64,000 nt of DNA from Raillietiella orientalis. Lineage: Eukaryota. The stretch is taken from contig JAYWIR010000117.1 of assembly GCA_036172245.1 (NCBI GenBank), positions 1-64,000 of the forward strand, in the 5' to 3' direction. The notes under the pieces are model-generated. The model had not been told where the DNA came from, searched no databases, and saw only the letters and a list, made by a program, of their open reading frames with translations. Of the stretch, positions 1-27,382 are shown piece by piece; the stretch's first letter is position 1, and the number at the start of each line of letters is the position of its first letter. A program made the translations under genes and the position numbers.

Positions 1-2908
1 AACCTTCGCTACGCGCACGTTCTCCGCACCAGAAATGCTGCCGCTTCACCCTTCCCAGCTGTCACCTCTGCAGCACTTCTTCATCGTGCATCCTTTCTTG
101 TGGGTCGCGCGCATACACCAGTTTCACCCATCCATCACAAGATGACGCATCTCTGCTGATCTTCGCAGAACCTCTATCGTGAAGCCCGTTTCGCTCGAGC
201 CTCGTTTCCACCGAGATGGGCAAGAAGGTAGGCAGCGCAGTTGCACAGCGAAAAAGCGCAGGTGCGAAATGCGCCAGCTCACTTGCCATGCATTTTCTCC
301 TTCGCGTCACACGGATTTCCTGCTGCGTTTCACGCCGTCGTATGCACCGTCACAGCAAACGTTTCCATGCAAATGAAGCAGCAGGAGAGAGTCCGCTTCC
401 ACCGACCTCGCTTGCCCCCGCACCGTTTCGCATGTCGAGCACAGGCTAGAACGCCGTGACCAGCAAGCAAGCTGTTGCCATCAGGCAGTGGAACGCTGGC
501 TGCCGGTGCGTGCCTGCCGCATCCAACGATTTTTCCTTGGGTTCGTGCGGTGGTATCCGTCATCGGCGGCAAGCTCCCACGTGGAGCGCATCGCGCTTCT
601 GCAAGCACGCTCTTGCTGCGCGTTCAGCCGTGTGCGGCGGGGCGGCGCCGCGTTGCTGGCGATCTTACCGGGAAGAAGGGAGGAGAAGGCAGGGAAACGA
701 AGGACGTCGGACAGGTGGACTGCCAGTCTAACGTGGCGTCGCACGGAAAGTCCGGAACAGTCCACAAATACTGATGTAAGAAACACGCAAAAAGTGTGAG
801 AACGAGACGATGACAGGGGTTTCCGCGTTCGACCGTTCCCTGCAAGCGGAACCGGCGCTGCATAACGAACATCTCGCTGCTCGCTCATATCTTCTGGGAG
901 TTCAGGCCGCCTGGCAGCCGTCGTCATGTTGACTTCAGCGAAAGAAGTGTCGTCTCGAGCAACCGCTCGAGACTCCAGCTGGTGGAGGGTTGCGAAGACA
1001 AGGCCTCCTTACGATGAGCGCATCTAACGAAAAGCGGCCAGGCGTGAAGAAGCGGCGCATCCCAATTCTTGGGCTGTCCCCCTGGAGCAGGAGCACGGAT
1101 GCCACCTTCTTCGCAGTGGAGGAAAAGATGCGCGAGCGTTTCCGCACCAGTCTTTGAAGACGCAACTCCCCCGCAGACGATGCTTGCGCTCTGGTTGCAA
1201 TGCAAGCTAACCCATGCGCCATCGGAGCGGGAACACACGCACTCGTCCACGCACGAACGAGAGTCCACAAGTTGTTCTGGTGGCACACTGAAGAGTTCAC
1301 AGCAGCGAAGGACTGCTTTGGGAACATGGCCAGGCGTGGCACCTTCTGCCGGACTCCAGTCGCCCATGGGACGAGTTGATCCCGCCGGTAGGCAACTGTC
1401 CACTAAAGCAGAAAGCGCTGCCGCAAGGGGCGTGGAGAGCCCACTTGTGCTGGTCCTGCAGCACTTCCTCCACTGGACACGATGGGGAAAGGTGCACGCA
1501 ACAAAGTTCCAAAACGACCACTTGCCTCGCGACGGTACCGGCGCGTGTCCCGGTTCGTCGGGCGGCAGGGGAATCAAGAGTGGGCTGCCAGGGACGAGCA
1601 CGAGCTGCCCGAAGGGGAGCTCAAGAAGCCTCTCGTGGTGGCGCGCTGGGCATGCGGCAGCAACGAAAGCAGCAACTGGGGATGACCGAGAGCTTCAGGA
1701 AAACTCTTCATGAGCTCGTACACCGAGTGGATTCGCAATACTCGTACATGCCGTGCATCAACGAACGTTTCTTGGAACAGGTGCTTGGAGAACGCAAAAT
1801 GAGGTGCCTTTCAAGTTGAGTGTTGAGTGTCCCTTCACGGATGCGTTTCGCGAAACTCCAAGCCGTGCACGCGCCACCATCCCGCTCACCAGCCTGCTTG
1901 CTGTTGTCGCACGCAACAAGCAGAGCATGCGCCAACGAACCGTGTCTTTGAGGCAAGCGCGCGTTCCACGCACCGCTGCTGCGCTGAACAAAAAATCCGA
2001 CGCCTATTCCGTCCTTCGCGATTCGCCAAACGGGCGTGTGCTGCGCTGATCCCGACGCTCGTACGGGATGTACGGGAAGGGCCGGTGCACAAGTGCGAGG
2101 ATATTTTAGGGAACGAAACGCGCGCACGCCTTGGATGGTCACAACGTACAAACGACGAAAGACTGCCGCTAGACGGAACGGGAAAAGAGGAAACTAACGA
2201 ACGGGGTGAATTGTTCCCGAGAATGGGGAAGAGGGAAGATCGAGCCAAAGTGGAAGCGTGGGCGTGCGAGAAACGCTCCCGTTTACGTTCCTTCGCACTT
2301 TTCTGTGCATGAGCGTGCACGGAACCAGGATGAAGTGGCACTCGCCAAACGCATTGCTCGAGCGTCGGTTGTGTGTGACGTCAGCACGGCCACATCTCAG
2401 TTCGGCAACGATTCCCGTTGCTTAGCAAAGGAGATTTTTCCTGACGGAAGAACTTGCTGTGTGCTGCTTGCGAATTCGGTTGTCGGATCGACTCGCGCAT
2501 TTCGTGGAAGAGATCGCAACTCGGAGTATCGTACTGCTGCGTAATCCAGCGCTTATCTACTTGTGCGTCTACTTGTGAATTCGGAAGTTCGTAGCGGATA
2601 GCGAATCCATCCCAACCGGAAGTAATTCGCATCCCTGCGAATCCGGAGCTTCGGATTCGGTTCCGAAACCAAACGGAAAGCGAGTCTTGTCGCTCGTGAC
2701 CCCGGAAAAAAAACATCTCGCCTATCCTGCCGCCGAGGTATCCAGGAAGGATTACCGTACTGCCAACTTAGAAAAGCCAGTGGCTGTAATTTAGCAGGAA
2801 AGGAAAGCAGATCCAGAAACAAAGCTGAGCACCGGTAAGATGAATGCAAGGTCCGTGAGAATGTGGGAAATCAATCCTGTGGTGCACGTGTGACGCAGGA
2901 AGTGATTC

Positions 2909-4310
2909 GTGGCTTGTGCACGACTTCCAGGTCGAGTCCCTCGCAATTGGGAAATGTGCTCAGCCTGGATTGGCATGTCTTCCCTGCGTATCGGGAAGGA
3001 GGAGTCCGAATCGCCGAAGCAAAAAGCTTCGTTTCGGACCGCAGACACTGAGAGTCTGTACGCGAAGGCATCCTCTGCGACCGTGTCTTCTCCGAGAATC
3101 CAGAAGCAAACGGAAGAGGAGTGGCCACCGGAGAGCAGCAGTGAGCCTTCCCGCACGGAAGCCAAGCCGAAGAGATGGCTTTGGTTCAGCTGGAAGAAAG
3201 GCAAGGGCAAGAAGAACGGAGCGGAGGAAGCGGGGAGCGGACCAGCCGAGACAGTACCTGTTGCGAACGGCTCCCCGACTACCGAGAAAAGCTGCAAGAA
3301 GCTCGTGAAAGCAACCTCGTTCTTCAAAAGCAACCTCACTCCACAAGAGAAGGAGAGCAAGGAATGCAGAAAGAGGGGGGAAAAAGCCAGCGAGGAAGCA
3401 CGGAAGCGAGACAAGAAACGGAAAGATGAACGGAAGAAGAAGAGAAACGAGGAGGAAAGACAGAAAGCGAAAGAGAAACGGGAGGAAGATCGGGAATGCA
3501 AGAAGAAATGCGGCAACAAACGGAATCGGTTCGTGCTGAAGAAGGTAGAAGTTCGGGAGCAACAGGAGACGAAGGAACGCGTGCCTGCGAATCGCAAAAG
3601 GCAAATGGTTCCGGGTGACGACAAGGAGGCGGCCAGGATGTTTTCAGCAGGGCATGGAAACGTGCGGACGGACGAAGACCACAGACGAAAAGGTGAAGAA
3701 GGAAAAACTGCTGGCTGCCCAGTTCTCCCAGCACAAGGGGCTTGATGCAGCCCCTGGCAACGTGCTACAGAACAAGGCTCTGGCCCTGAACAGTGAAGCA
3801 GCTGCAGGCAAGACAGGGCGACATGGCAAGAAACAGAAGGGCATGCTACTCTGACCACTGCTCCTGAGCCAAACCAGACAACGAGGAAGCATTCTCTGCC
3901 ATTCCAGTCCCCAGGAGTCAGACAACATGAACTACCCTCGGCCTGGCCAGCCGGATAGGTGCTGCAGGCACACAACCTCGACTGCAGAGAAGGCGGAGCC
4001 TCCCGGACCGGACAACAGTGTGCTGGCGTTCAGCCGGCCTATGAGGATGTGCCGAGAAGGTTGGTGGAACGGGTTCTGCATTCCGGCCACTGCACACGCG
4101 TCTCCTCCCATTCGGTGCCCCGGGTGGAGTTTGCGGATGCGCGTCGCTCGTTCTGCACGTTCGCGCACGAACGTACGCGTACCTGTGCGTGGCTCGTGTG
4201 GAGCTCGCAACGCGTTTGCATGCGTTTGGTCGAGAAACTTGCTTTTTCTTCGCTTGTGCGCGAAACAAGGAAGGACGGAAAAGAAGAAGAGCCGTTGCAC
4301 GTGTTCTTGA
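2909..4310 (+). CDS. Lys/Glu-rich low-complexity protein of unknown function, copy 1 (frame disrupted in the garbled patch ~3632-4050)
   Basis: ORF 2909-3745 (…KRWLWFSWKKGKGKKNG…KDERKKKRNEEERQKAKEKREEDRECKKK…) with purine-rich coding-like bias; tail ORF 3927-4310 matches the end of the copy-3 ORF. Plausible acceptor TTCCAG at 2930 and a small upstream exon 2798-2834 ending in GTAAG. Confidence 0.5.
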
Positions 4311-4573
4311 CCGGAAGCCGGTAGAAGGGGTGCGCATTTCGGAAAACTGCAGGCTTGTCTGGAAAGAGCGCCGCTGCGTTGCCTTCGGGAATTTCACAGG
4401 CGCGATTTGTTCTTCAAACTCTTTCCGGAACAAGGTGGCCATTTATCCGAGTGCAAGCGGCTGCGTGAGCATTTTGCCGAGCCGAACGTTCCGGAAGCAA
4501 GGCAATTGCACTTGGGATGCGAAGAAAAGGAACGATAATTTCCCTTCGCACGAACGTTTCGTGTGCTTCTCTC

Positions 4574-5873
4574 ATGGCAGCGTTTCGACGTGATGGCGGT
4601 GGCGGGAGCGGTGCGCCGACGGCTTGCGAGGCACGCGTGTTGCCGTCGCGTTGTCCGATCGGTTGAATGCATGAAAAATGCTAATGAGACGCTTCTTGTT
4701 TTTCCCAAAGGGCAAATCGAGTGCGTGGTCCCGGCACTGGAATCCTTGATAACGCGATTGGAGATAGTAGCCACGGCGCTGGAAGCTGCGGCAACGGAGG
4801 CCGAACTTGGCGTGGAGCAGTCGGATGGCTTTGGTAATTGCGACTGTCCGCGTGCAATGGCTTGCTGCTTGCCCGCAAGTCCGATGTGCACGTCCGCGCT
4901 GCCTGGAATAGCCGAAATCGGCAGAGCGACGCGTGCAGCGAAGATGAGCTCGAGCAGCCATTCTCGCTTTCTGTCGACCTAACACGGCTTGGCTCATCAG
5001 CTCACAACTCACGGGTTGCTAACAGCTCGCAATGGAGAAACAGCGTGCCTTCCATCGTCCAGAATGTCGATACCTTGTTTGCCGCTGTTTCCAGAGATCA
5101 GCAATCCGTGGCTCGAAGATTACGCCCGAATTGGGAAGGGATCTTTGGCCGTCTACCGCAATCTGTCGGCCAAGATCTCGGAAGCGGTTCGCAAGCACTC
5201 GGACATGGTGCTGAAAGCATTCAAGTAAGCGCTTGTTGTTCATAAGGCCACGATGGAAGGTTCCCTCTCCTCGGTTTCCCAGTTGCTAACCATCTTTCTT
5301 TCCTGTTGCAGGATCCAGGGGCGTTTGATGCAACTAATATGCCGCTCGCAGGAACCCGACGACTCGAAAGTGCTCGACCTCCTTCAACCGCTTTCCGAGT
5401 GCATCGTGCAGATCGAGGCATTCGAGCAAAGTCAGCGCGACACCGAGACGCATGTTCACCTGTGTGTGATCAGCCAGAGTGTGGCAGCCATCCTTTGGGT
5501 GACCATGGTAGGTGGTCGGGCACGCATCCGCAAACTTTCTTTCCTTTTCGTAGAGCCCCTATCCCGCGGATGCTGTTCGAGACATGATGTTTTTATGCCG
5601 ACTCCCCGTGAAGCGCGTCCTCCAGGAATGGAAGCAAAAGTGAGTTTCCGGGTCGAAGGGAAGATCGGGAAAAGATGGTGCTTGCTCGTTTCTTTCAGCG
5701 ATGATCATGTGTGTTGGGTGAAGTCGTGGATGGCCGTATTGTCCGAGTTGCACAGTTTGGCGAAAACCCATCACACGACGTGGGTCCCATGGCACGCAAA
5801 AGGTGCCAGCGTTGAGGAGCACACCCCACCTCCACCCTTGCCGACCTCTTCCCACTCTCCTACGCCCCGGTGA
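4574..5873 (+). CDS. CAP: Divergent cyclase-associated protein (CAP/Srv2) paralog, N-terminal half only, 248 aa; exons 4574-4610, 4711-4833, 5095-5224, 5312-5507, 5554-5639, 5699-5873
   Basis: All introns are GT-AG and phase-compatible. The spliced product has the N-terminal RLE coiled-coil motif (LESLITRLEIVATALE), the helical folded domain (…VRKHSDMVLKAFK…DLLQPLSECIVQI…HLCVISQSVAAILWVTM…RVLQEWKQ…DHVCWVKSWMAVLSELHSLAKTHHTTWVPW) and a PPPPLP tract, colinear with animal CAP1/CAP2. The first exon and the 3' end are less certain. Confidence 0.85.
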
Positions 5874-8800
5874 CCCGGAAGGCCTGCTTTGCTTGCACGT
5901 TCGAATGCAGGCAAAGCAGTCACAATAAATACGTGTCGAATTTCGAATGCTCTTTCAGTTCTTGAATGGTCCACGACTGCCAAGTCGCCCATTCCACATT
6001 ACCGAAAGTTTGGCACCATGCGACGGCACCAACCAAGTTGTGCAGAATGCTCAGCCACTTTTCAGCGTTGTTTTCATTTTGCCTCGTTCCCTCGAATGCT
6101 CTGAATGAGGAAAACAAGCAGAAAAGAACCGCAAAAGATCAAAGTCGACTTCGACTGCATCCACTCAATTTTGGCACACATTGGAATGGGACGCTCCTTT
6201 TTCGCTTCCAAATGCAACACGCACCCTGCGCCGTCCAGCGAGAGCCAACTCTCGTGAAACCACTGCTCTCCAAAGTAGCGAAGATGAAGTTTCAGCCACA
6301 GCGGATTCCACCCAAAGCTGACCAAGGCAGCAACAGTCAGAAGATTGGACGGACCCATATTGAGAATCCAAACCGGGCATGCCGTCCACCCATTTAGTAC
6401 CAGCCGAACACATTTTCCACTTTTTTCTTACGAAAAGGGAACTCGTTCATCCCTTCGCACCGCGGTGGGAAGACTATGTCCACTGATAGTCAGACTTTTC
6501 GGATGACTCAAAATAGGAGATTGCGACTGATCTCGTTGTTTCTGCCTGAATGCCCTGTTCCCTGTTGCACGCAGCATCCAGCTGCTAACCGGATTCGCTT
6601 CAGTCCTCACGATGTCGGTCGACTCGTGCCGACATGCCATTGTGGAAAATGAACTAACAGAGGTGGTGGAAGGAATGGCGCGAAGGATGTGCGCAGACTC
6701 GCCAGGTTCGCTGGTCCGCAGCAGAATTGCAGAAGGACAAGCAAGAACGGGAAGAAAATGAAAAAGCAAATAGGAAGAAATGGGGGGAAGACGCTTGGAA
6801 GGGATCGCTGCCTGTTCCTCTGCATCTTTCCTAAGGTGCCGGCGGGGTGTTGCTGAACGCTTCCCAGCTGGGACCATCTTAATGCTTTTCGTGGGAAGCA
6901 AATGGCCACGCGGAACGATGGCGCGTCCGTGTCTCCCAGGCGTCGCCGCAGGCCGCCACGATCCGGCTCTAGCCGCAATGAGCTGCTAGGGACGCGGCTG
7001 GCGGTAGATGCATCACTTCCAAACGCTCCTGCAATTGTATCCCCGGTATCCCAAGGGTGGGCACAACAAAGTTTAACCAGCAGGAAGCCTGAGAGCCACA
7101 GAATCCGCATTCAGCTGCGGGCGGATCCGCGCTCTCCGTGCCGGCTCTAGTTGGGGCTCCCACACAACCCGGGTCCAGTGAAGTCGGAGGGGGTTCGAAG
7201 AGAAACAATCCCAGTGCAACAGCAGAATCGCCGAATACGTAACCAAAAAGGTAAGATGTAAGTGTTCTCAGGAGGACTGGGGACCATCGGTAGTCTCGCC
7301 GGGGAATAGCCAAGAGCTCGCGGCTGCGAAGACGTAGGGCACTTGGTACCTGCGAGCTCGCTGTAGATCAACCACCCAAGTCTTTCTTCCTGGAGTTGAA
7401 CTCTCACGAGACCTTCCACCTTCTTGGCATGCTGCTGCCCAAGAAGCTCCCTCAGGCATCATTGCCGCGTGGGAGGTTCAATCCAGGCTCAGCTCCCTTG
7501 CCACGATGCACGACTGTTTCCTGGAGGCAGAAATTGTTACAGAAGCAGTACAGCAACCGCCGCCGTGACTCCGGGCCCGTCTGCTTGCTATTCGCCCGCG
7601 TGCCCAGTTTCCTGCAAGCAAACGCTACCGTTCGCGGGGCGATCCTGCTGGACGTCCTGCTCTTCTTCCTGGTCGGTGAGACGTGATGCGAAGTGCGCAG
7701 TGGGCCACGTTGGACAGCATGCCGAGCATACCAAGAAAGTGGATGCGATGTTTTCGCAAGGATGGGCGTCGAAGGCAGAACGAACTCGAGTGCAAACGTT
7801 GGGAATGCTTTCGGTACACTTTTGACGAGACCGATCAGGTGTGAGAAAATCCCAACGTGGAGGAAAGCGTGTATTCCATCTTCTCCAGGTGTTGACCGTA
7901 TGCGCCTTGCGCCGCGTCAGAAAAGACGCAGGAGAGCTGTCCTGCTCCGGCGCTGCAAGACGGCCCCGGATCGTCGGCAATCCGAGCAACAGGGTCGGGC
8001 AAACCGCCTTCGCTTTTTTCGCAGCGCCTCCCTTTTTTGCAACGGAGGAGGGTGCTGTGCCCTCGCCTGCCTCGCACTGCTTGGCAACGAATGACGTCGT
8101 GCAGAGCGGAGGCAGCAGCCACCTCGAGAGCTAGCTCGTTTCTCCGGGAACGCCTGCCGCGCACAATCTTCGCTTCGATCTTCCTCGGCCATCAGCGAAC
8201 CTTTCTGCGCGCAATCCTCCCCCCAACTGCGTGCGCAGTGGCGCGACAACGCGCGTGTCTGCGACAAGAAAGGAACACTTGTTCCCGAATGGCAATCCCG
8301 GAGATGGAGGCCGGCAGGCTTTGCAGATGGAACGCGGAAGAGCTGGCCCGGTCATTGCGGAAGCCGGTCGGATAGCTGGCTTCTTGCGAAACGACGCATC
8401 TGCACAACGTCGCTGCCGTTGGCCGTTTCATTTGCTCCCTCCGTTCAAGCAAGCCTTCGCTACGCGCACGTTCTCCGCACCGGAAATGCTGCCGCTTCAC
8501 CCTTCCCAGCTGTCACCTCTGCAGCACTTCTTCATCGTGCATCCTTTCTTGTGGGTCACGCGCATACACCAGTTTCACCCATCCATCACGAGATGACGCA
8601 TCTCTGCTGATCTTCGCAGAACCTCTATCGTGAAGCCCGTTTCGCTCGTGCCTCGTTTCCACCGAGGATGGGCAAGAAGGTAGGCAGCGAAAAAGCGCAC
8701 GTGCGAAATGCGCCAGCTCACTTGCCATGCACTTTCTCCTTCACGTCACACGGCTTTCCTGCTGCGTTTCACGCCGTCGTATGCACCGTCACAGCAAACG

Positions 8801-11303
8801 TTTCCATGCAAATGAAGCAACAGGAGAGAGTCCGCTTCCACCGACCTCGCTTGCCCCCGCACCGTTTCGCATGTCGAGCACAGGCTAGAACGCTGTGACC
8901 AGCAAGCAAGCTGTTGCCATCAGGCAGTGGAACGCTGGCTGCCGGTGCGTGCCTGCCGCATCCAACGATTTTTGCTTGGGTTCGTGCGCTGGTATCCGTC
9001 ATCGGCGGCAAGCTGCCACGTTGAGCGCATCGCGCTTCTGCAAGCACGCTCTTGCTGCGCGTTCAGCCGTGTGCGGCGGCGCCGCGTTGCTCGCGATCTT
9101 TCCGGGAAGAAGGGAGGATGAAGGCAGGGAAAGGAAGGACGTCGGACAGGTGGACTGCCAGTCTAACGTGGCGTCGCACGGAAAGGCCGGAACAGTCCAC
9201 AAATACTCATGTAAGAAACACGCAAAAAGTGTGAGAACGAGACGATGACAGGGGTTTGCGCGTTCGGCCGTTCCCTGCAAGCGCAACCGGCGCTGCGTAA
9301 CGAACATCTCGCTGCTCGCTCATATCTTCTGGCAGTTCAGGCCGCCTGGCAGCCGTCGTCATGTTGACTTCAGCGAAAGAAGTGTCGTCTCGAGGAACCG
9401 CCCGAGACTCCAGCTGGTGGAGGGTTGCGAAGATAAGGCCTCCTTACGATGAGCGCATCTAACGGAAAGCGGCCAGGCGTGAAGAAGCGGCGCATCCCAA
9501 TTCTTGGGCTGTCCCCCTGCAGCAGGAGCACGGATGCAGTGGACGAAAAGATGCGGGAGCGTTTCCGCACCAGTCTTTGAAGACGCAACTCCCCCGCAGA
9601 CGATGCTTGCGCTCTGGTTGCAATGCAAGCTAACCCATGCGCCATCGGAGCGGGAACACTTTTGCTGTCCGCTGCGAACGAAGTCCACAAGTTGTTCTGT
9701 TGGCACACTGAAAGATCACAGCAGCGAAGGACTGCTTTGAGGCCTGTAGAAGCCAAGGCATGGCACCTTTGCGGACCTCAGTCGCCCATGGGACGGGTTG
9801 GTGATCCCGCCGGTAGGCAACCTCCACTAAGCGGAAAGCGCCTGCTGTGTGACCTGTATGGCTGCCGGCGCCTTCCTCCTGGGACACCAGTAGGGGAAGG
9901 GTACTGCAACAAAGTTCTCTCCCACCCCTCCTGACAAGGTACCGGCGTATCCCTGGTCGTCAGGCAACAGGGAATCAAAATGTGCAAGAGACTCGAGCAC
10001 AGAGCTTTGTAAAAACTCAGAAGCCTCTCGTGGTGGCGCGCTGGGCATGCTGCTGCGCTGGCAAAGCAGCAATACAGGGGATGACCGAGAGCTTCAGGAA
10101 AACTCTTCATGAGCTCGTACACCGAGTGGATTCGCAGTACTCGTACATGCCGTGCATCAACGAACGTTTCTTGGAACAGGTGCTTGGAGAACGCAAAATG
10201 AGGTGCCTTTCAAGTTGAGTGTTGAGTGTCCCTTCACGGATGCGTTTCGCGAAACTCCAAGCCGTGCACGCGCCACCATCCCGCTCACCAGCCTGCTTGC
10301 TGTTGTCGCACGCAACAAGCAGAGCATGCGCCAACGAACCGTGTCTTTGAGGCAAGCGCGCGTTCCACGCACCGCTGCTGCGCTGAACAAAAAATCCGAC
10401 GCCTATTCCGTCCTTCGCGATTCGCCCAACGGGCGTGTGCTGCGCTGATCCCGACGCTCGTACGGGATGTACGGGAAGGGCCGGTGCACAAGTGCGAGGA
10501 TATTCCAGGGAACGGAACGCGCACGCCTTGGATGGTCACAACGTACAAACGACGAAAGACTGCCGCTAGACGGGACGAGAAAAGAGGAAAGCGACGAACG
10601 GGCCGAATCGTTCCCGAGAATGGGGAACAGCGAAGATCGAGCCAAAGTGGGAGCGTGGGCGTGCGAGAAACGCTCCCGTTTCCCTTCCTTCGCACTTTTC
10701 TGCGCATGAGCGTGCACCGAACCAGGATGAAGTGGCACTCGCCCAAGGCATTGCTCGAGCGTCGGTTGTGTGACGTGAGCACGGCCACCTCTCACTTCGA
10801 CAACGATTCCCGTTGCTTAGCAAAGGAGATTTTTCCTGACGGAAGAATTTGCTGTGTGCTGCTTGCGAATTCGGTTGTCGGATCGACTCGCGCATTTCGT
10901 GGAAGAGATCGCAACTCGGAGTATCGTACTGCTGCGTAATCCAGCGCTTATCTACTTGTGCGTCTACTTGTGAATTCGGAAGTTCGTAGCGGATAGCGAA
11001 TCAATCCCAACCGGAAGTAATTCGCATCCCTGCGAATCCGGAACTTCGGATTCGGTTCCGAAACCAAACGGAAAGCGAGTCTTGTCGCTCGTGACCCCGG
11101 AAAAAACACATCTCGCCTATCCTGCCGCCGAGGTATCCAGGAAGGATAACCGTACTGCCAACTTAGAAAAGCCAGTGGCTGTAAGGTAGCAGGAAAGGAA
11201 AGCAGATCTAGAAACAAAGCTGAGCACCGGTAAGATGAATGCGAGGTCCGTGAGAATGTGGGAAATCAATCCTGTGGTGCACGTGTGACGCAGGAAGTGA
11301 TTC

Positions 11304-12481
11304 GTGGCTTGTGCACGACTTCCAGGTCGAGTCCCTCGCAATTGGGAAATGTGCTCAGCCTGGATTGGCATGTCTTCCTTGCGTATCGGGAAGGAGGAGT
11401 CCGAATCGCCGAAGCAAAAAGCTTCGTTTCGGACCGCAGACACTGAGAGTGTGTACGCGAAGGCATCCTCTGCTACCGTGTCTTCTCCGAGAATCCAGAA
11501 GCAAACGGAAGAGGAGTGGCCAGCGGAGAGCAGCAGTGAGCCTTCCCGCGCGGAACCCAAGCCGAAGAGATGGCTTTGGTTCAGCTGGAAGAAAGGCAAG
11601 GGCAAGATGAACGGAGCGGAGGAAGCGGGGAGCGGACCAGCCGAGAGAGTACCTGTTGCGAACGGCTCCCCGACTACCGACAAAAGCTGCAAGAAGCTCG
11701 TGAAAGCAACCTCGTTCTTCAAAAGCAACCTCACTCCACAAGAGAAGGAGAGCAAGGAATGCAGAAAGAGGGGGAAAAAGCCAGCAAGGAAGCACGGAAG
11801 CGAGACAAGAAACTGAAAGATGAACGGAAGAAGAAGAGAAACGAGGAGGAAAGACAGAAAGCGAAAGAGAAACGGGAGGAAGATCGGGAATGCAAGAAGA
11901 AATCCGGCAACAAACGGAATCGGTTCGTTCCGAAGAAGGTAGAAGTTCAGGAGCAACAGGAGACGAAGGAACGCGTGCCTGCGAATCGCAAAAGGCAAAT
12001 GGTTCCGGGTGACGACAAGGAGGCGGCCGAAACGATTGCTTCCAAGCAGGAGCATGGAAACGGCGAACGAACGAAGACCACGAACGAAAAGGCGAAGAAA
12101 GGAAAAACGCTAGCTTGCTTCCGTTTCTCCAAGCACAGGGGAAGGAGAACCGGAGAAGATGCGACCCTGGCAACGTCCTTGCCAGGGAACGAACCTACGA
12201 AACGCGAAGTCTCGAGCAAACTGCGAGGCAAAGACGGAGGCGGCGACGTAGCCAGGGAGCAGGAAGAGCATTGCTGCTCGATGCTGCTCACGGAGCCCAA
12301 GCGGAACGAAGGAAGCGACTGCCGCCATTCCCGTGTCTGGGGAGTCGATGGCGCCGAACTGCCCTCGGCAGCTGTGGATAGGTGCGCAGGCACACATAGC
12401 CTCGAACTGCGAAGAAGAAAGCAGACCTCTCCAGATGGGTGGCTGGTCAGCCGCAGCGTTCAGTGCGACTATGGAGATTAG
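11304..12481 (+). pseudogene. Lys/Glu-rich ORF, copy 2 (frameshift in the G/A homopolymer near 11770-11780; TAG at 12479)
   Basis: ORFs 11304-11816 and 11570-12481 together reproduce the copy-1/copy-3 protein; the lesion is in a homopolymer and may be a sequencing error. Confidence 0.5.
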
Positions 12482-13005
12482 TGCCGAGAAGGTTGGTGGA
12501 ACGGGTTCTGCATTCCGGCCACTGCACACGCGTCTCCTCCCATTCGGTGCCCCGGGTGGAGTTTGCGGATGCGCGTCGCTCGTTCTGCACGTTCGCGCAC
12601 GAACGTACGCGTACCTGTGCGTGGCTCGTGTGGAGCTCGCAACGCGTTTGCATGCGTTTGGTCGAGAAACTTGCTTTTTCTTCGCTTGTGCGCGAAACAA
12701 GGAAGGACGGAAAAGAAGAAGAGCCGTTGCACGTGTTCTTGACCGGAAGCCGGTAGAAGGGGTGCGCATTTCGGGAAACTGCAGGCTTGTCTGGAAAGAG
12801 CGCCGCTGCGTTGCCTTCGGGAATTTCACAGGCGCGATTTGTTCTTCAAACTCTTTCCGGAACAAGGTGGCCATTTATCCGAGTGCAAGCGGCTGCGTGA
12901 GCATTTTGTCGAGCCGAACGTTTCGCAAGCAAGGCAATTGCACTTGGGATGCGAAGAAAAGGAACGATAATTTCCCTTCGCACGAACGTTTCGTGTGCTT
13001 CTCTC

Positions 13006-14287
13006 ATGGCAGCGTTTCGACGTGATGGCGGTGGCGGGAGCGGTGCGCCGACGGCTTGCGAGGCACGCGTGTTGCCGTCGCGTTGTCCGATCGGTTGAAT
13101 GCATGAAAAATGCTAATGAGACGCTTCTTGTTTTTCCCAAAGGGCAAATCGAGTGCGTGGTCCCGGCACTGGAATCCTTGATAACGCGATTGGAGATAGT
13201 AGCCACGGCGCTGGAAGCTGCGGCAACGGAGGCCGTGGAGCAGTCGGATGGCTTTGGTAATTGCGACTGTCCGCGTGCAATGGCTTGCTGCTTGCCCGCA
13301 AGTCCGATGTGCACGTCCGCGCTGCCTGGAATAGCCGAAATCGGCAGAGCGACGCGTGCAGCGAAGATGAGCTCCAGCAGCCATTCTCGCTTTCTGTCGA
13401 CCTAACACGGCTTGGCTCATCAGCTCACAACTCACGGGTCGCTAACAGCTCGCAATGGAGAAACAGCGTGCCTTCCATCGTCCAGAATGTCGATACCTTG
13501 TTTGCCGCTGTTTCCAGAGATCAGCAATCCGTGGCTCGAAGATTACGCCCGAAGTGGGAAGGGATCTTTGGCCGTCTACCGCAATCTGTCGGCCAAGATC
13601 TCGGAAGCGGTTCGCAAGCACTCGGACATGGTGCTGAAAGCATTCAAGTAAGCGCTTGTTGTTCATAAGGCCACGATGGAAGGTTCCCTCTCCTCGGTTT
13701 CCCAGTTGCTAACCATCTTTCTTTCCTGTTGCAGGATCCAGGGGCGTTTGATGCAACTCATATGCTGCTCGCAGGAACCCGACGACTCGAAAGTGCTCGA
13801 CCTCCTTCAACCGCTTTCCGAGTGCATCGTGCAGATCGAGGCATTCGAGCAAAGTCAGCGCGACACCGAGACGCATGTTCACCTGTGTGTGATCAGCCCA
13901 GGTGTAGCCATCCTTTGGGTGACCATGACGGTGGTCGGGCACGCATCCGCAAACTTTCTTTCCTTTTCGTAGAGCTATCCCGCGGATGCTGTTCGAGACA
14001 TGGTGTTTTTATGCCGACTCCCGTGAAGCGCGTCCTCCGGGAATGGAAGCAAAAGTGAGTTTCGGGTCCAAGGGAAGATCGGAAACAGATGGTGCTTGCT
14101 CGTTTCTTTCAGCGATGATCATGTGTGTTGGGTGAAGTCGTGGATGGCCGTATTGTCCGAGTTGCACAGTTTGGCGAAAACCCATCACACGACGTGGGTT
14201 CCATGGCACGCAAAAGGTGCCAGCGTTGAGGAGCACACCCCACCTCCTCCCTTGCCGACCTCTTCCCACTCTCCTACGCCCCGGTGA
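13006..14287 (+). pseudogene. CAP: N-CAP paralog, copy 2 (exon-4 donor altered; small in-frame deletions)
   Basis: Same exons as copy 1, but ACCATG|GTAGGT is replaced by ACCATGACGGTGGT (~13927), 9 bp are missing in exon 2 (GAACTTGGC) and 3 bp each near 13900 and 13975. Confidence 0.7.
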
Positions 14288-17200
14288 CCCGGAAGGCCTG
14301 CTTTGCTTGCACGTTCGGATGCTGGCAAAGCAGTCACAATAAATACGTGTCGAATTCCGAATGATCTTTCAGTTCTTGAATGATTCACATTTGCCAAGTC
14401 GCCCGGATCCACATCACCGAAAGTTTGGCACCATGCGACGGCACCAACCAAGTTGTGCAGAATGCTCAGCCACTTTTCAGCGTTGTTTTCATTTTGCCTC
14501 GGTCCCTCGAATGCTCTGAATGAGGAAAACAAGCAGAAAAGAACCGCAAAAGATCAAAGTCGACTTCGAAAGTGCGAGTTCGACTGCATCCACTCAATTT
14601 TGGCACACATTGGAATGGGACGCTCCTTTTTCGCTTCCAAATGCAACACGCACCCTGCGCCGTCCAGCGAGAGCCAACTCTCGTGAAAGCACTGCTCTCC
14701 AAAGTAGCAAAGATGAAGTTTCAGCCACAGCGGATTCCACCCAAAGCTGACCAAGGCAGCAACAGTCAGAAGATTGGACGGACCCATATTGAGAATCCAA
14801 ACCGGGCATGCCGTCCACCCTTAGTACCAGACGAACACATTTTCCACTTTTTCTTACGAAAAGGGAACTCGTTCATCCCTTCGCACCGCGGTGGGAAGAC
14901 TATGTCCACTGATAGTCAGACTTTTCGGATGACTCAAAATAGGAGAGTGCGACTGATCTCGTTGTTTCTGCCTGAATGCCCTGTTCCCTGTTGCACGCAG
15001 CATCCAGCTGCTAACCGGATTCGCTTCAGTCCTCACGATGTCGGTCGACTCGTGCCGACATACCATTGTGGAAAATGAACTAACAGAGGTGGTGGAAGGA
15101 ATGGCGCGAAGGATGTGCGCAGACTCGCCAGGTTCGCTGGTCCGCAGCAGAATTGCAGAAGGACAAGCAAGAACGGGAAGAAAATGAAGAAGCAAATAGG
15201 AAGAAATGGGGGGAAGACGCTTGGAAGGGATCGCTGCCTGTTCCTCTGCATGTTTCCTAAGGTGCCGGCGGGGTGTTGCTGAACGCTTCCCACCTGGGAC
15301 CATCTTAATGCTTTTCGTGGGAAGCAAATGGCCACGCGGAACAAATGGCGCGTCCGTGTCTCCCAGGCGTCGCTGCAGGCCGCCACCATCCGGCTCTAGC
15401 CGCAATGACTCACCCGAGGACGCGGCTGTCGGTAGATGCATCACTTCCAAACGCTCCTGCAATTGTCCCCGGTATCCCGAGGGTGGGCACAAAGTTTAAC
15501 CACCAGGAAGCCTGAGAGCCATTCAGCTGCGGGCGGATCCGCGCTCTGCGTGCCGGCTATAGTTGGGGCTCCCACACAAACCCGGGTCCAGTGAAGTCGG
15601 AGGAGGTTTGAAGAGAAACAAATCCAGTGCAACAGCAGAATCGCCGAATACGAAACCAAAAAGGCCAGATGTAAGTGTTCTCAGGAGGACTGGGGACCAT
15701 CGGTAGTCTCGCCGGGGAATAGCCAAGAGCTCGCGGCTGCGAAGACGTAGGGCACTTGGTACCTGCGAGCTCGCTGTAGATCAACCACCCAAGTCTTTCT
15801 TCTTGGAGTTGAACTCTCACGAGACCTTCCACCTTCTTGGCATGCTGCTGCCCAAGAAGCTGCCTCAGGCATCATTGCCGCGTGGGAGGTTCAATCCAGG
15901 CTCAGCTCCCTTGCCACGATGCACGACTGTTTCCTGGAGGCAGAAATTGTTACAGAAGCAGTACAGCAACCGCCGCCGTGACTCCGGGCCCGTCTGCTTG
16001 CTATTCGCCCGCGTGCCCAGTTTCCTGCAAGCAAACGCTACCGTTCGCGGGGCGATCCTGCTGGACGTCCTGCTCTTCTTCCTGGTCGGTGAGACGTGAT
16101 GCGAAGTGCGCAGTGGTTAACGTTGGACAGCATGCCGAGCATACCAAGAAAGTGGACGCGATTTTTTCGCAAGGATGGCCGTCGAAGGCAGAACGAACTC
16201 GAGTGCAAACGTTGGGAATGCTTTCGGTACACTTTTGACGAGACCGATCAGGTGTGAGAAAATCCGAACGTGGAGGAAAGCGTGTATTCCATCTTCTCCA
16301 GGTGTTGACCGTATGCGCCTTGCGCCGCGTCAGAAAAGACGCAGGAGAGCTGTCCTGCTCCGGCGCTGCAAGACGGCCCCGGATCGTCGGCAATCTGAGG
16401 AACAGGGTCGGGCAAACCGCCTTCGCTTTTTTCGCAGCGCCTCCCTTTTTTTGCAACGGAGGAGGGTGCTGTGCCCTCGCCTGCCTCGCACTGCTTGGCA
16501 ACGAATGACGTCGTGCAGAGCAGAGGCAGCAGCCACCTCGAGAGCTAGCTCGTTTCTCCGGGAACGTCTGCCGCGCACAATCTTCGCTTCGATCTTCCTC
16601 GGCCATCAGCGAACCTTTCTGCGCGCAATCCTCCCCCCAACTGCGTGCGCAGTGGCGCGACAACGCGCGTGTCGCCACAAGAAATGAACACTTGTTCCCG
16701 AATGGCAATTCTGGTGATGGAGGCCTGCAGGCTTTCCAGAATGAACGCAGAAGAGCTAGCCGATGCATTGCAGGAAACCCGGTCGGATGGCAGCTGCTTG
16801 CGAGCGACACATGCGCGGTCTGCACAACGTCGCTGCTGTTGGCCGTTTCATTTCTCTTCCCCTCCCGTTCAAAGCAAGCCTTCGCTACGCGCACGTTCTC
16901 CGCACCGGAAATGCTGCCGCTTCACCCTTCCCAGCTGTCACCTCTGCAGCACTTCTTCATCGTGCATCCTTTCTTGTGGGTCACGCGCATACACCAGTTT
17001 CACCCATCCATCACAAGATGACGCATCTCTGCTGATCTTCGCAGAACCTCTATCGTGAAGCCCGTTTCACTCATTCCTCGTTTCCACCAGAATGGGCAAG
17101 AAGGTGTGCCTGGTTACTGTGAAAAAGCGCAGGTGCGAAGTACCTTATAGCAGTGTTTCTCGCTGATCTCGGTATATTTCACACGGATTTCTGCTGCGTA

Positions 17201-19737
17201 GCATTTGTCACACAAGCGCCTTGCAGCTTGCCACAGCAAACGTTTCCATGCAAATGAAGCAACAGGAGAGAGTCCGCGTCCACCGACCTCGCTTGCCCCC
17301 GCACCGTTTCGCATGTCGAGCACAGGCTAGAACGCCGTGACCAGCAAGCAAGCTGTTGCCATCAGGCAGTGGAACGCTGGCTGCCGGTGCGTGCCTGCCG
17401 CATCCAACGATTTTTCCTTGGGTTCGTGCGGTGGTATCAATGTCGGCGGCAAGCTTCGCATCGGGCGCATCGCGCTTCTGCAGCACGCTCTTGCTGCGCG
17501 TTCAGCCGTGTGCACGGCGGGAGCAGCACCGCGTTGCTGGCGATCTTACCGGGAAGAAGGGAGGAGAAGGCAGGGAAACGAAGGACGTCGGACAGGTGGA
17601 CTGCCAGTCTAACGTGGCGTCGCACGGAAAGTCCGGAACAGTCCACAAATACTGATGTAAGAAACACGCAAAAAGTGTGAGAACGAGACGATGACAGGGG
17701 TTTCCGCGTTCGACCGTTCCCTGCAAGCGGAACCGGCGCTGCATAACGAACATCTCGCTGCTCGCTCATATCTTCTGGGAGTTCAGGCCGCCTGGCAGCC
17801 GTCGTCATGTTGACTTCAGCGAAAGAAGTGTCGTCTCGAGCAACCGCGCGAGACTCCAGCTGGTGGAGGGTTGCGAAGACAAGGCCTCCTTACGATGAGC
17901 GCATCTAAGGAAAAGCGGCCAGGCGTGAAGAAGCGGCGCATCCCAATTCTTGGGCTGTCCCCCTGGAGCAGGAGCACAGGAATTGCCACCTTCTTCGCAG
18001 TGGAGGAAAAAGATGCGCGAGCGTTTTCGCACCAGTCTTTGAAGACGCAACTCCCCCGCAGACGATGCTTGCGCTCTGGTTGCAATGCAAGCTTACCCAT
18101 GCGCCATCGGAGCGGGAACACACGCACTCGTCCACGCACGAACGAGAGTCCACAGGTTGTTCTGCTGGCACACTGAAGAGTTCACAGCAGCGAAGGACTG
18201 CTTTGGGAACATGGCCAGGCGTGGCACCTACTGCCGGACTCCAGTCGCCCATGGGACGAGTTGATCGTGCGTTCGGCAGGGCGCCCTCACATCCCGCCGG
18301 TAGGCAACTGTCCACTAAAGCAGAAAGCGCTGCCGCAAGGGGCGTGGAGAGCCCACTTGTGCTGGTCCTGGCCTTCCTCCACTGGACCTGGTGGGAAAGG
18401 TGCACGCAACAAAGTTTAAAGCAAACCACTTGCCTCGCGTCGGTACCGGCGCGTGTCCCGGTTCGTCGGGCGGCAGGGGAATCAAGAGTGGGCTGTCAGG
18501 GACGAGCACGAGCTGCCCGAAGGGAAGCTCAAGAAGCCTCTCGTGGTGGCGCGCTGGGCATGCGGTAGCAACGAAAGCAGCAACTGGGGATGACCGAGAG
18601 CTTCAGGAACTCGTACACCGAGCCGATTTGCAATACTCGTACATGCCGTGCATCAACGAACGTTTCATGGAACAGGTGCTTGGAGAATGCAAAATGAGGT
18701 GCCTTTCAAGTTGAGTGCTGAGTGTCCCTTCACGGATGCGTTTCGCGAAACTCCAAGCCGTGCACGCGCCACCATCCCGCTCACCAGCCTGCTTGCTGTT
18801 GTCGCACGCAACAAGCAGAGCATGCGCCAACGAACCGTGTCTTTGAGGCAAGCGCGCGTTCCACGCACCGCTGCTGCGCTGAACAAAAAATCCCACGCCT
18901 ATTCCGTCCTCCGCGATTCGCCCAACGGGCGTGTGCTGCGCTGATCCCGACGCTCGTACGGGATGTACGGGAAGGGCCGGTGCACAAGTGCGAGGATATT
19001 CCAGGGAACGGAACGCGCACGCCTTGCATGGTCGCAACGTACAAACGACGAAAGACTGTCGCTAGACGGGACGAGAAAAGAGGAAAGCGACGAACGGGCT
19101 GAATGTGTTTCGAGAATAGGGAACAGCAAAGTCAGGCAAGTGGGAGCATGGGTATGCGAAGCACTCCGTTTCCTTCCTTGCCTCTGCGCATGAGCGATCA
19201 CCCGAACCAGGATGAAGTGGCACTCGCAGGCGTGCTCAAACGTCGGTTGTGTGACGTGAGCACGGCCACCTCTCACTTCGACAACGATTCCCGTTGCTTA
19301 GCAAAGGAGATTTTTCCTGACGGAAGAATTTGCTGTGTGCTGCTTGCGAATTCGGTTGTCGGATCGACTCGCGCATTTCGTGGAAGAGATCGCAACTCGG
19401 AGTATCGTACTGCTGCGTAATCCAGCGCTTATCTACTTGTGCGTCTACTTGTGAATTCGGAAGTTCGTAGCGGATAGCGAATCCATCCCAACCGGAAGTA
19501 ATTCGCATCCCTGTGAATCCGGAACTTCGGATTCGGTTCCGAAACCAAACGGAAAGCGAGTCTTGTCGCTCGTGACCCGGAAAAAACACATCTCGCCTAT
19601 CCTGCCGCCGAGGTATCCAGGAAGGATAACCGTACTGCCAACTTAGAAAAGCCAGTCGCTGTAAGGTAGCAGGAAAGGGAAGCAGATCTAGAAACAAAGC
19701 TGAGCACCGGTAAGATGAATGCGAGGTCCGTGAGAAT

Positions 19738-21219
19738 GTGGGAAATCAATCCTGTGGTGCACGTGTGACGCAGGAAGTGATTCGTGGCTTGTGCACGACT
19801 TCCAGGTCGAGTCCCTCGCTGGGAGATAATACTCAGCCTGGTCCAGCATGTCTTCCTTGCGTATCAGGGAAGGAGGGTCCGAATCGCCGACGAAAGCTTC
19901 CGTTTCGGACCGCAGACACTGAGAGTGTGTACGCGAAGGCATCCTCTGCTACCGTGTCTTCTCCGAGAATCCAGAAGCACACGGAAGAGGAGTGGCCAGC
20001 GGAGAGCAGCAGTGAGCCTTCCCGCGCGGAACCCAAGCCGAAGAGATGGCTTTGGTTCAGCTGGAAGAAAGGCAAGGGCAAGATGAACGGAGCGGAGGAC
20101 GCGGGGAGCGGACCAGCCGAGAGAGTACCTGTTGCGAACGGCTCCCCGACTACCGACAAAAGCTGCAAGAAGCTCGTGAAAGCAACCTCGTTCTTCAAAA
20201 GCAACCTCACTCCACAAGAGAAGGAGAGCAAGGAATGCAGAAAGAGGGGGAAAAAAGCCACCAAGGAAGCACGGAAGCGAGACGAGAAACTGAAAGATGA
20301 ACGGAAGAAGAAGAGAAACGAGGAGGAAAGACAGAAAGCGAAAGAGAAACGGGAGGAAGATCGGGAATGCAAGAAGAAATCCGGCAACAAACGGAATCGG
20401 TTCGTGCCGAAGAAGGTAGAAGTTCAGTAGCAACAGGAGACGAAGGAACGCGTGCCTGCGAATCGCAAAAGGCAAATGGTTCCGGGTGACGACAAGGAGG
20501 CGGCCGAAACGATTGCTTCCAAGCAGGAGCATGGAAACGGCGAACGAACGAAGACCACCAACGAAAAGGCGAAGAAAGGAAAAACGCTAGCTTGCTTCCG
20601 GTTCTCCAAGCACAGGGGAAGGAGAACCGGAGAAGATGCGACCCTGGCAACGTGCTTGCCAGGGAACGAACCTACGAAACGCGAAGTTTCGAGCAAACTG
20701 CGAGGCAAAGACGGAGGCGGCGACGTAGCCAGGGAGCAGGAAGAGCATTGCTGCTCGATGCTGCTCACGGAGCCGAAGCGGAACGAAGGAAACGACTGCC
20801 GCCATTCCTGTGTCTGGGGAGTCGATGGCGCCGAACTGCCCTCGGCAGCTGTGGATGGGTGCGCAGGCACACATAGCCTCGAACTGCGAAGAAGAAAGCA
20901 GACCTCTCCAGATGGGTGGCTGGTCAGCCGCAGCGTTCAGTGCGACTATGGAGATTATTGCCGAGAAGGTTGGTGGAACGGGTTCTGCATTCCGGCCACT
21001 GCACACGCGTCTGCTCCCGTTCGGTGCCCCGGGTGGAGTGTGCGGATGCGCGTCGCTCGTTCTGCACGTTCGCGCACGAACGTACGCGTACGTGTGCGTG
21101 GCTCGTGTGGAGCTCGCAACGCGTTTGCATGCGTTTGGTCGAGAAACTTGCTTTTTGTTCGCTTGTGCGCGAAACAAGGACGGACGGAAAAGAAGAAGAG
21201 CCGTTGCACGTGTTCTTGA
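19738..21219 (+). pseudogene. Lys/Glu-rich ORF, copy 3 (one continuous frame broken by a single TAG at 20428-20430)
   Basis: ORFs 19738-20430 and 20452-21219 are in the same frame; the TAG corresponds to GAG in copies 1 and 2. The N-terminal part crosses a garbled patch (~19820-19900). Confidence 0.5.
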
Positions 21220-21487
21220 CCGGAAGCCGGTAGAAGGGGTGCGCATTTCGGAAAACTGCAGGCTTGTCTGGAAAGAGCGCCGCTGCGTTGCCTTCGGGAA
21301 TTTCACAGGCGCGATTTGTTCTTCAAACTCTTTCCGGAACAAGGTGGCCATTTATCCGAGTGCAAGCGGCTGCGTGAGCATTTTGTCGAGCCGAACGTTT
21401 CGCAAGCAAGGCAATTGCACTTGATATGCGAAGAAAAGGAATGATAATTTCCCTTCGCATGAACGTTTCGTGTGATGTGCTTCTCTC

Positions 21488-22788
21488 ATGGCAGCGTTTC
21501 GACGTGATGGCGGTGGCGGGAGCGGTGCGCTGACGGCTTGCCAGGCACGCGTGTTGCCACTCGCGTTGTCCGATCGGTTGGATGCATGAAAAATGCTAAT
21601 GAGACGCTTCTTGTTTTTCCCAAAGGGCAAATCGAGTCCGTGGTCCCGGCACTGGAATCCTTGATAACGCGATTGGAGATAGTAGCCACGGCGCTGGAAG
21701 CTGCGGCAACGGAGGCCGAACTTGGCGTGGAGCAGTCGGATGGCTTTGGTAATTGCGACTGTCCGCGTGCAATGGCTTGCTGCTTGCCCGCAAGTCCGAT
21801 GTGCACGTCCGCGCTGCCTGGAATAGCCGAAATCGGCAGAGCGACGCGTGCAGCGAAGATGAGCTCGAGCAGCCATTCTCGCTTTCTGTCGACCTAACAC
21901 GGCTTGGCTCCTCAGCTCACAACTCACGGGTTGCTAACAGCTCGCAATGGAGAAACAGCGTGCCTTCCATCGTCCAGAATGTCGATACCTTGTTTGCCGC
22001 TGTTTCCAGAGATCAGCAATCCGTGGCTCGAAGATTACGCCCGAATTGGGAAGGGATCTTTGGCCGTCTACCGCAATCTGTCGGCCAAGATCTCGGAAGC
22101 GGTTCGCAAGCACTAGGACATGGTGCTGAAAGCATTCAAGTAAGCGCTTGTTGTTCATAAGGCCACGATGGAAGGTTCCCTCTCCTCGGTTTCCCAGTTG
22201 CTAACCATCTTTCCTTCCTGTTGCAGGATCCAGGGGCGTTTGATGCAACTAATATGCCGCTCGCAGGAACCCGACGACTCGAAAGTGCTCGACCTCCTTC
22301 AACCGCTTTCCGAGTGCATCGTGCAGATCGAGGCATTCGAGCAAAGTCAGCGCGACACCGAGACGCATGTACACCTGTGTGTGATCAGCCAGAGTGTGGC
22401 AGCCATCCTTTGGGTGACCATGGTAGGTGGTCGGGCACGCATCCGCAAACTTTCTTTCCTTTTCGTAGAGCCCCTATCCCGCGGATGCTGTTCGAGACAT
22501 GATGTTTTTATGCCGACTCCCCGTGAAGCGCGTCCTCCAGGAATGGAAGCAAAAGTGAGTTTCCGGGTCCAAGGGAAGATCGGGAAAAGATGGTGCTTGC
22601 TCGTTTCTTTCAGCGATGATCATGTGTGTTGGGTGAAGTCGTGGATGGCCGTATTGTCCGAGTTGCACAGTTTGGCGAAAACCCATCACACGACGTGGGT
22701 CCCATGGCACGCAAAAGGTGCCAGCGTTGAGGAGCACACCCCACCTCCACCCTTGCCGACCTCTTCCCACTCTCCTACGCCCCGGTGA
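21488..22788 (+). pseudogene. CAP: N-CAP paralog, copy 3 (nonsense TCG>TAG at 22114-22116 in exon 3)
   Basis: Near-identical to copy 1 with all splice sites retained; AAGCACTAGGAC versus AAGCACTCGGAC. Confidence 0.75.
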
Positions 22789-25700: not shown

Positions 25701-27382
25701 GCGTTTCACGCCGTCGTATGCACCGTCACAGCAAACGTTTCCATGCAAATGAAGCAACAGGAGAGAGTCCGCTTCCACCGACCTCGCTTGCCCCCGCACC
25801 GTTTCGCATGTCGAGCACAGGCTAGAACGCTGTGACCAGCAAGCAAGCTGTTGCCATCAGGCAGTGGAACGCTGGCTGCCGGTGCGTGCCTGCCGCATCC
25901 AACGATTTTTCCTTGGGTTCGTGCGGTGGTATCCGTCATCGGCGGCAAGCTTTCACGTGGAGCGCATCGCGCTTCTGCAAGCACGCTCTTGCTGCGCGTT
26001 CAGCCGTGTGCGGCGGGGCGGCGCCGCGTTGCTGGCGATCTTACCGGGAAGAAGGGAGGAGAAGGCAGGGAAACGAAGGACGTCGGACAGGTGGACTGCC
26101 AGTCTAACGTGGCGTCGCACGGAAAGTCCGGAACAGTCCACAAATACTGATGTAAGAAACACGCAAAAAGTGTGAGAACGAGACGATGACAGGGGTTTCC
26201 GCGTTCGACCGTTCCCTGCAAGCGGAACCGGCGCTGCATAACGAACATCTCGCTGCTCGCTCATATCTTCTGGGAGTTCAGGCCGCCTGGCAGCCGTCGT
26301 CATGTTGAATTCAGCGAAAGAAGTGTCGTCTCGAGCAACCGCTCGAGACTCCAGCTGGTGGAGGGTTGCGAAGACAAGGCCTCCTTACGATGAGCGCATC
26401 TAACGAAAAGCGGCCAGGCGTGAAGAAGCGGCGCATCCCAATTCTTGGGCTGTCCCCCTGGAGCAGGAGCACGGATGCCACCTTCTTCGCAGTGGAGGAA
26501 AAGATGCGCGAGCGTTTCCGCACCAGTCTTTGAAGACGCAACTCCCCCGCAGACGATGCTTGCGCTCTGGTTGCAATGCAAGCTAACCCATGCGCCATCG
26601 GAGCGGGAACACACGCACTCGTCCACGCACGAACGAGAGTCCACAAGTTGTTCTGGTGGCACACTGAAGAGTTCACAGCAGCGAAGGACTGCTTTGGGAA
26701 CATGGCCAGGCGTGGCACCTTCTGCCGGACTCCAGTCGCCCATGGGACGAGTTGATCCCGCCGCTAGGCAACTGTCCACTAAAGCAGAAAGCGCTGCCGC
26801 AAGGGGCGTGGAGAGCCCACTTGTGCTGGTCCTGCAGCACTTCCTCCACTGGACACGATGGGGAAAGGTGCACGCAACAAAGTTCCAAAACGACCACTTG
26901 CCTCGCGACGGTACCGGCGCGTGTCCCGGTTCGTCGGGCGGCAGGGGAATCAAGAGTGGGCTGCCAGGGACGAGCACGAGCTGCCCGAAGGGGAGCTCAA
27001 GAAGCCTCTCGTGGTGGCGCGCTGGGCATGCGGCAGCAACGAAAGCAGCAACTGGGGATGACCGAGAGCTTCAGGAAAACTCTTCATGAGCTCGTACACC
27101 GAGTGGATTCGCAATACTCGTACATGCCGTGCATCAACGAACGTTTCTTGGAACAGGTGCTTGGAGAACGCAAAATGAGGTGCCTTTCAAGTTGAGTGTT
27201 GAGTGTCCCTTCACGGATGCGTTTCGCGAAACTCCAAGCCGTGCACGCGCCACCATCCCGCTCACCAGCCTGCTTGCTGTTGTCGCACGCAACAAGCAGA
27301 GCATGCGCCAACGAACCGTGTCTTTGAGGCAAGCGCGCGTTCCACGCACCGCTGCTGCGCTGAACAAAAAATCCGACGCCTA

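Follow-up and report, generated by a model that had tools for sequence, protein, structure and literature searches.

An N-terminal half of CAP/Srv2 with replaced actin-contact residues: one intact and two disabled copies in a GC-rich tandem array

CAP/Srv2 is described as a two-halved actin recycling machine, and most invertebrates are described as having a single CAP, in the review literature (PMC7543520). A locus at 4574-5873 (plus strand), within the 64-kb stretch of DNA analysed here (hereafter the window), carries the N-terminal half of such a protein and recurs in further copies along the same stretch. It raises the question of whether this half-CAP is a gene that selection has kept and multiplied, or a fragment carried along by a repeat. 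We examined its gene model, its domain content, its actin-contact residues, the array in which it lies and the state of its copies.

Gene model and domain content of the intact copy

The copy at 4574-5873 (copy A) is the sole intact one among the three in the window. It reads from an ATG at 4574 to a TGA at 5871-5873 through six exons on the plus strand, yielding 265 codons in 798 nt. Each of the five introns is GT-AG, with compatible phases and a pyrimidine-rich acceptor. The six phase-compatible exons proposed for this interval in an earlier note are confirmed, as are its coordinates. Exon 1 (4574-4661; 29 codons plus 1 nt) is without CAP homology and is the least certain; an alternative in-frame ATG at 4671 gives a five-exon model that lacks exon 1 and intron 1. 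Exon 2 (4711-4833) encodes the oligomerisation motif with its repeated aXXaXXX heptads, and exon 3 (5095-5224) the first helix of the helical folded domain (HFD), in which the KIGG of other CAPs reads KISE. The HFD core is formed by exon 4 (5312-5507), and exon 5 (5554-5639) contributes the helix that bears Phe162 and Tyr163 in mouse CAP1, here L-P at residues 196-197 of the 265-aa model. Exon 6 (5699-5873) provides the last HFD helix, with its HHTT motif, followed by PPPPLP and the TGA, whose first base belongs to a GT at 5870-5871. The sequence AATAAA, a candidate poly(A) signal, lies 51 nt past the stop at 5924-5929 (plus strand) and is identical in all three copies.

Exon 4 matches the Pfam family CAP_N (PF21938) with an E-value of 4.3e-10 and 40.3 bits, above the cut-off of 27, and exon 6 matches it below the cut-off (E 4.8e-4, 20.7 bits); exons 2, 3 and 5, searched singly against Pfam, gave no CAP match. 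Among PDB chains, exon 4 matches the mouse and human CAP1 HFDs (6rsw_C, E 3.6e-7) and exon 6 matches Dictyostelium and mouse CAP (1tjf_A, E 6.8e-4), the entries matched overall being 6rsw, 6rsq, 9q7o, 1s0p and 1tjf. Exon 5 found no PDB match when searched singly, and its alignment rests on the MAFFT and HMM alignments. We built a profile HMM of 178 positions from nine library HFDs, against which the spliced copy A product scored 115.2 bits as a single domain spanning model positions 5-175. Only 279 of 500 shuffled controls scored at all, the best at 4.1 bits. The splice model thus restores the HFD in full. The membership in the CAP_N family that had been proposed for this locus is thus borne out by both the exon 4 match and the spliced product.

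The oligomerisation motif, helical folded domain and poly-proline tract that had been reported are all present. Heptad residues L39, L42, L46, V49, L53 and A56, read by eye, follow a 3-4-3-4-3 spacing, and aXXaXXX heptads define the CAP oligomerisation domain as described in PMC7543520. The proline tract is a stub: PPPPLP occupies residues 251-256, is followed by nine residues and the stop, and is far shorter than the tract of human CAP1. The HFD is 23-33% identical to other HFDs, which share 23-63% among themselves in the library, and the highest value among those compared is with the animal-like protein P0015 (33%). In 23 HFD columns at least eight of the nine library HFDs agree; copy A keeps 15 of these near-invariant residues and has changed eight, the losses including three glycines, namely both of KIGG and one of HTTG. 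With that many near-invariant columns changed, the fold could be compromised.

Close relatives were sought in several collections. A word-index search with exon 4 returned none, and HMMER against 1.84 billion representatives gave 13 matches (best E 1.5e-6), none above 40% identity save one low-complexity match. Scans of metagenome and viral contig collections found no relative, and the ESM Atlas gave no usable match. Neither start model has a hydrophobic N-terminal leader, as judged by eye, which speaks against the secreted role that had been suggested for the product.

Replaced actin contacts and the missing C-terminal half

As described by Kotila et al. (2019, PMC6876575), the HFD of mouse CAP1 grips the actin D-loop helix via Phe162 and Tyr163, mutation of these residues disrupts binding to ADF-H/actin complexes, and Arg118 and Glu119 are salt-bridged to actin Glu57 and Lys50. 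In both the multiple alignment and the HMM alignment, the CAP1 stretch FYTNRVL aligns with LPVKRVL of copy A. The human CAP1 stretch that contains FYTNRVL also aligns to P0015, and the human CAP1 string quoted in the earlier note was verified. The replacement of Phe-Tyr by Leu-Pro that had been claimed is therefore confirmed. The second contact pair has changed as well: the FRE/FRD-KNRG motif of other CAPs (FREKNRG in CAP1) reads FEQSQRD in exon 4 of copy A, so that Arg-Glu becomes Glu-Gln in the ungapped exon 4 alignment and in the multiple alignment alike. All four structurally defined actin contacts are thus replaced in copy A.

The WH2 motif and the CARP beta-helix (Pfam CAP_C, PF08603), which mark full-length CAP/Srv2, were not found, in agreement with the earlier claim that neither follows downstream. 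A tblastn search of the 64-kb window with seven CAP proteins recovered only the three HFD copies, all other matches having E-values of at least 0.046. Two of the seven, P0005 and P0015, include CAP_C, and the best match of that region anywhere in the window had an E-value of 1.4, which is chance level. Between 5800 and 13000, the 67 plus-strand open reading frames with a length of 40 aa or more matched no Pfam family; exons below this length could have gone unnoticed. On both strands of the repeat unit, Pfam gave only two matches, each below threshold, in 34 frames of 120 aa or longer and 55 others of 60 aa or longer. Nor does THKN, or LKxV in a WH2 context, occur across the array; we take these motifs to be WH2/CAP signatures.

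Probably the half-CAP is a partial duplicate in which the last exon runs on into former intron sequence, because its stop overlaps a GT dinucleotide and AATAAA follows 51 nt downstream.

A tandem array with one intact copy

Positions 1-27382 of the window have 55-59% GC, and the remainder is mostly at 30-39% GC, except for a GC-rich block at about 48-56 kb. Self-BLAST and unit alignment resolve the GC-rich segment into a head-to-tail array on the plus strand with a period of about 8.45 kb and 3.2 units: unit A at 1-8453, unit B at 8454-16878, unit C at 16879-25376 and a partial unit D at 25377-27382. The array extends leftward beyond the window edge and ends on the right at about 27382, where AT-rich DNA begins. 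Its period is out of reach of Tandem Repeats Finder, which was run with periods up to 500. Units A, B and C each hold one copy of the half-CAP.

The units differ from one another in a patchwork manner. Positions 1-2006 of unit A are 99.6% identical to the truncated unit D (25377-27382), whereas their identity to units B and C drops to about 93%; at 3679-4126, units B and C are alike and both differ strongly from A. The units are mosaics, and this suggests that gene conversion or unequal exchange among them is ongoing. In 250-bp bins along the unit, many other bins are conserved as well as those of the gene region. Over 6697 well-aligned columns, private inter-unit substitutions comprise 92 transitions and 106 transversions, with 51 G-C interchanges and a W>S to S>W ratio of 70:62. 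They predict an equilibrium GC of 0.58, the current GC of the array being 0.56; judging from these counts, an unusual substitution spectrum is keeping the array GC-rich within an AT-rich genome. RIP-like mutation was considered and rejected on the ratios of 92:106 and 70:62, there being no RIP-like excess of transitions. No Rfam family and no tRNA was detected in the array unit. Upstream of the CAP gene, at 2906-3742 (plus strand) and at the equivalent place in units B and C, lies a purine-rich stretch with a 279-aa Glu/Lys/Arg-rich frame on the plus strand and a 412-aa frame on the minus strand, the extents of which vary among units. These frames match no family; the stretch is probably low-complexity non-coding DNA, though it may hold a second gene.

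Copies B and C are pseudogenes. In copy B (13006-14287, plus strand), the intron-4 donor has changed from GT to AC at 13928-13929, a 1-bp deletion in exon 5 (equivalent to position 5604 in copy A) causes a frameshift with early stops, and three in-frame deletions have removed 9, 3 and 3 bp. In copy C (21488-22788, plus strand), TCG has become TAG at 22114-22116 (codon 106), and exon 1 carries a frameshifting 1-bp insertion at 21560. Together, the nonsense codon and the insertion mean that copy C is dead under either start model.

We counted private changes over the interval 4310-6140, in which 44% of sites are coding. Copy B has 14 coding and 22 non-coding events and copy C has seven and eight, with non-synonymous to synonymous ratios of 6:4 and 4:2, respectively. 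Copies B and C change at the neutral rate, as expected without constraint. Copy A has no coding and five non-coding events, a distribution with a one-sided binomial p of 0.057 that rests on these five events. A selected ampliconic family would comprise several intact, constrained copies; in the window, one of three is intact. The multi-copy array that the earlier note had likened to such families is therefore real as a tandem repeat of about 8.45 kb, but its copies are not equivalent, two of them being disabled. We read the amplification as recent repeat turnover, in which most copies decay neutrally, and not as a selected expansion.

Origin, competing explanations and relation to known CAP systems

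The exon structure bears on the origin of the half-CAP. Six CAP proteins of the library (P0006, P0007, P0008, P0010, P0011 and P0012) are exon fragments, evidently single exons called on eukaryotic contigs, and the position of intron 4 is the same in all six: homology ends two residues past a conserved WV, and the next codon is one for Val, as expected of a GT donor that is read through. P0011 is compatible with the position of intron 3, and the corresponding stretch is uninterrupted in P0006, P0012 and P0013. A processed, retro-copied pseudogene was rejected because the gene has five GT-AG introns, one of them at a position common to other eukaryotic CAP genes. Long past selection as coding sequence is a fair inference: in-frame homology spans five exons at an identity of only 23-33%, 15 of the 23 near-invariant columns are nevertheless kept, and at least one ancient intron is placed as in the six exon fragments. 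Unrelated taxa served as the yardstick both for the age of the split and for the preservation of the exon structure. The earlier proposal of long selection on a divergent half-CAP is reasonable for its past; it does not extend to a family now under selection, given that copies B and C accumulate coding changes at the non-coding rate.

The surroundings of the array include both host genes and mobile elements. At 58090-59141 (plus strand) lies a PDCD2-like gene with zf-MYND and PDCD2_C domains, whose best named relative is from Periplaneta americana (45%), and at 59326-61591 (minus strand) a TUT1/Star-PAP-like nucleotidyltransferase gene with zf-C2H2, RRM and PAP domains, whose best relative is from Colias croceus (33%). 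Both look like ordinary AT-rich host genes of an arthropod-like host; the protein collection contained no close relative. The GC-rich block at 48000-56000, embedded in AT-rich DNA, holds pieces of non-LTR retrotransposons (LINEs) in both orientations, with RVT_1 at 49264-50061 (minus strand) and Exo_endo_phos in a 604-aa frame at 52991-54802 (plus strand). This frame is preceded by a 588-aa frame at 51276-53039 (plus strand) that has no Pfam family and may be an ORF1. Between 28000 and 48000, at 33-39% GC, no frame of at least 110 aa matches a Pfam family. A weak similarity (58% across some 330 nt; E 8e-6 in tblastx) links a segment of the array unit, 6689-7062, to 50696-51076, which lies upstream of the LINE ORFs, and hints at a transposon origin for part of the unit. 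In the CAP paralog GC3 is 0.68 and intron GC 0.52, compared with a GC3 of 0.22-0.33 in the neighbouring host genes and 0.59-0.68 in the LINE ORFs. The array belongs to a GC-rich repeat compartment of an AT-rich genome, a state that may have arisen through biased conversion or through a mobile or foreign origin.

We consider it an evenly balanced proposition that the locus is an old N-only CAP paralog, long coding, which is now undergoing recent tandem amplification with loss of copies, and of which copy A is still a gene. Under this reading, a partial, DNA-level duplicate of a CAP/Srv2 gene would have kept the coiled-coil motif for oligomerisation and the HFD, with no more than a stub of its first poly-proline tract, and would have been maintained as coding sequence over a long period. 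The GC-rich 8.45-kb unit around it would then have been amplified in tandem, recently, by unequal crossing-over and gene conversion, and copies would have been lost through ordinary decay in a birth-and-death process that left one intact copy and two pseudogenes in the window. If expressed, the copy A product should fold as an HFD and oligomerise via its heptad motif. With four lost contacts and no WH2/CARP half, it is therefore probably unable to engage the actin pointed end or to recharge monomers. Its likeliest activity would be that of an inactive subunit that joins or competes with CAP oligomers and lowers their HFD valency. A bolder version, which we think improbable, makes the half-CAP a natural poison subunit that would co-assemble with canonical CAP and damp cofilin-dependent filament disassembly in one or a few tissues, for instance the germline, with amplification and turnover reflecting dosage selection or genetic conflict, as seen for ampliconic families elsewhere.

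The strongest competitor, which we rate as possible and appreciably less probable than a surviving gene, is that the whole array is a relic, a half-CAP fragment, once functional or never so, having been carried along as the GC-rich unit multiplied; all copies would now be non-functional, and copy A would be intact only through its short private branch. Two of the three copies are disabled, their coding to non-coding counts lie near the 44% coding share of the region, their non-synonymous to synonymous changes stand at 6:4 and 4:2, and the gene region diverges like the remainder of the unit. Several invariant HFD residues are gone, and with only five private events the zero coding changes of copy A weigh little. 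Nevertheless, an in-frame, splice-competent frame of 265 codons at 23-33% HFD identity is incompatible with neutral drift throughout its history, and copy A combines the absence of private coding changes with an intact AATAAA and intact splice sites throughout.

Other explanations concern the unit or the transcript. That the unit is transposon-borne or foreign, the CAP fragment having been captured by GC-rich mobile DNA or having come in with it, and its copy number reflecting element dynamics and not selection on the gene, appears unlikely to us, if slightly less so than the poison subunit. The GC3 of the paralog falls in the range of the LINE ORFs and well above that of host genes 30 kb away, a contrast that the reading as an old N-only paralog leaves unexplained; the segment at 6689-7062 has its weak counterpart upstream of those ORFs, and the predicted equilibrium would make the high GC self-sustaining. 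On the other hand, Pfam searches detected no transposase, reverse transcriptase or Rep/helicase domain in the unit, self-BLAST revealed no terminal repeats within it, and a head-to-tail array is the expected product of unequal crossing-over; of the HFDs compared, the animal-like P0015 comes nearest, in keeping with a host origin, and scans of the viral and metagenome collections found no relative. More doubtful than any of these is the view that a longer or chimeric transcript exists, of which the six exons are the 5' part and in which the GT at 5870 splices to exons encoding something other than WH2/CARP. The overlap of this GT with the stop codon and the more than 6 kb of unit downstream, with its many open frames, would allow it, but open frames are expected by chance at such a GC content, the 67 downstream plus-strand frames are without a Pfam family, and the AATAAA shortly past the stop is conserved in all copies.

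If copy A is indeed a surviving paralog, a natural N-only protein would offer a ready test of whether inactive subunits can regulate CAP oligomers, and of roles of the HFD scaffold besides actin binding. If it is merely a decaying duplicate, it would exemplify the ordinary birth and death of gene fragments in a repeat array, and its chief use would be as a caution for annotation, with one intact copy beside two look-alike pseudogenes.

Canonical CAPs (mammalian CAP1 and CAP2, yeast Srv2 and Drosophila capulet) have in common with the half-CAP the heptad motif, the HFD, the start of the poly-proline region and one intron position. They differ in possessing the WH2 motif, a second proline tract and CARP/CAP_C, all three of which the half-CAP lacks; in the half-CAP, moreover, the Phe-Tyr and Arg-Glu pairs are replaced, HFD identity is down to 23-33%, and the gene is multi-copy and mostly broken. 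The C-terminal-only CAPs, such as the apicomplexan minimal CAP, are likewise natural CAPs reduced to one half, but it is the opposite half, with the monomer-binding CARP kept, and they are conserved single-copy genes. Our limited literature search found no N-only animal CAP, which does not imply absence from print. N-only architectures do occur in nature, as three proteins with repeated OD/HFD modules, P0004 from the protist Pygsuia biforma (two HFDs), P0009 from Nolandella sp. (four) and P0003 from a metagenome contig (three), have CAP_N without CAP_C, like the half-CAP. Unlike it, they have retained both the aromatic pair, as FY or FW, and the basic-acidic pair, and they repeat the HFD inside one protein and not as repeated genes; their sources are transcriptomes or contigs from distant eukaryotes. 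Laboratory N-CAP and N-Srv2 constructs have the domain content of the half-CAP: OD, HFD and part of P1. As described in PMC3530777 and PMC6876575, these constructs form oligomers and act together with cofilin in severing and in pointed-end depolymerisation; oligomerisation matters for N-CAP activity according to PMC7543520. The laboratory N-CAP acts through an intact actin interface, whereas the half-CAP naturally resembles the defective Phe162/Tyr163 mutant.
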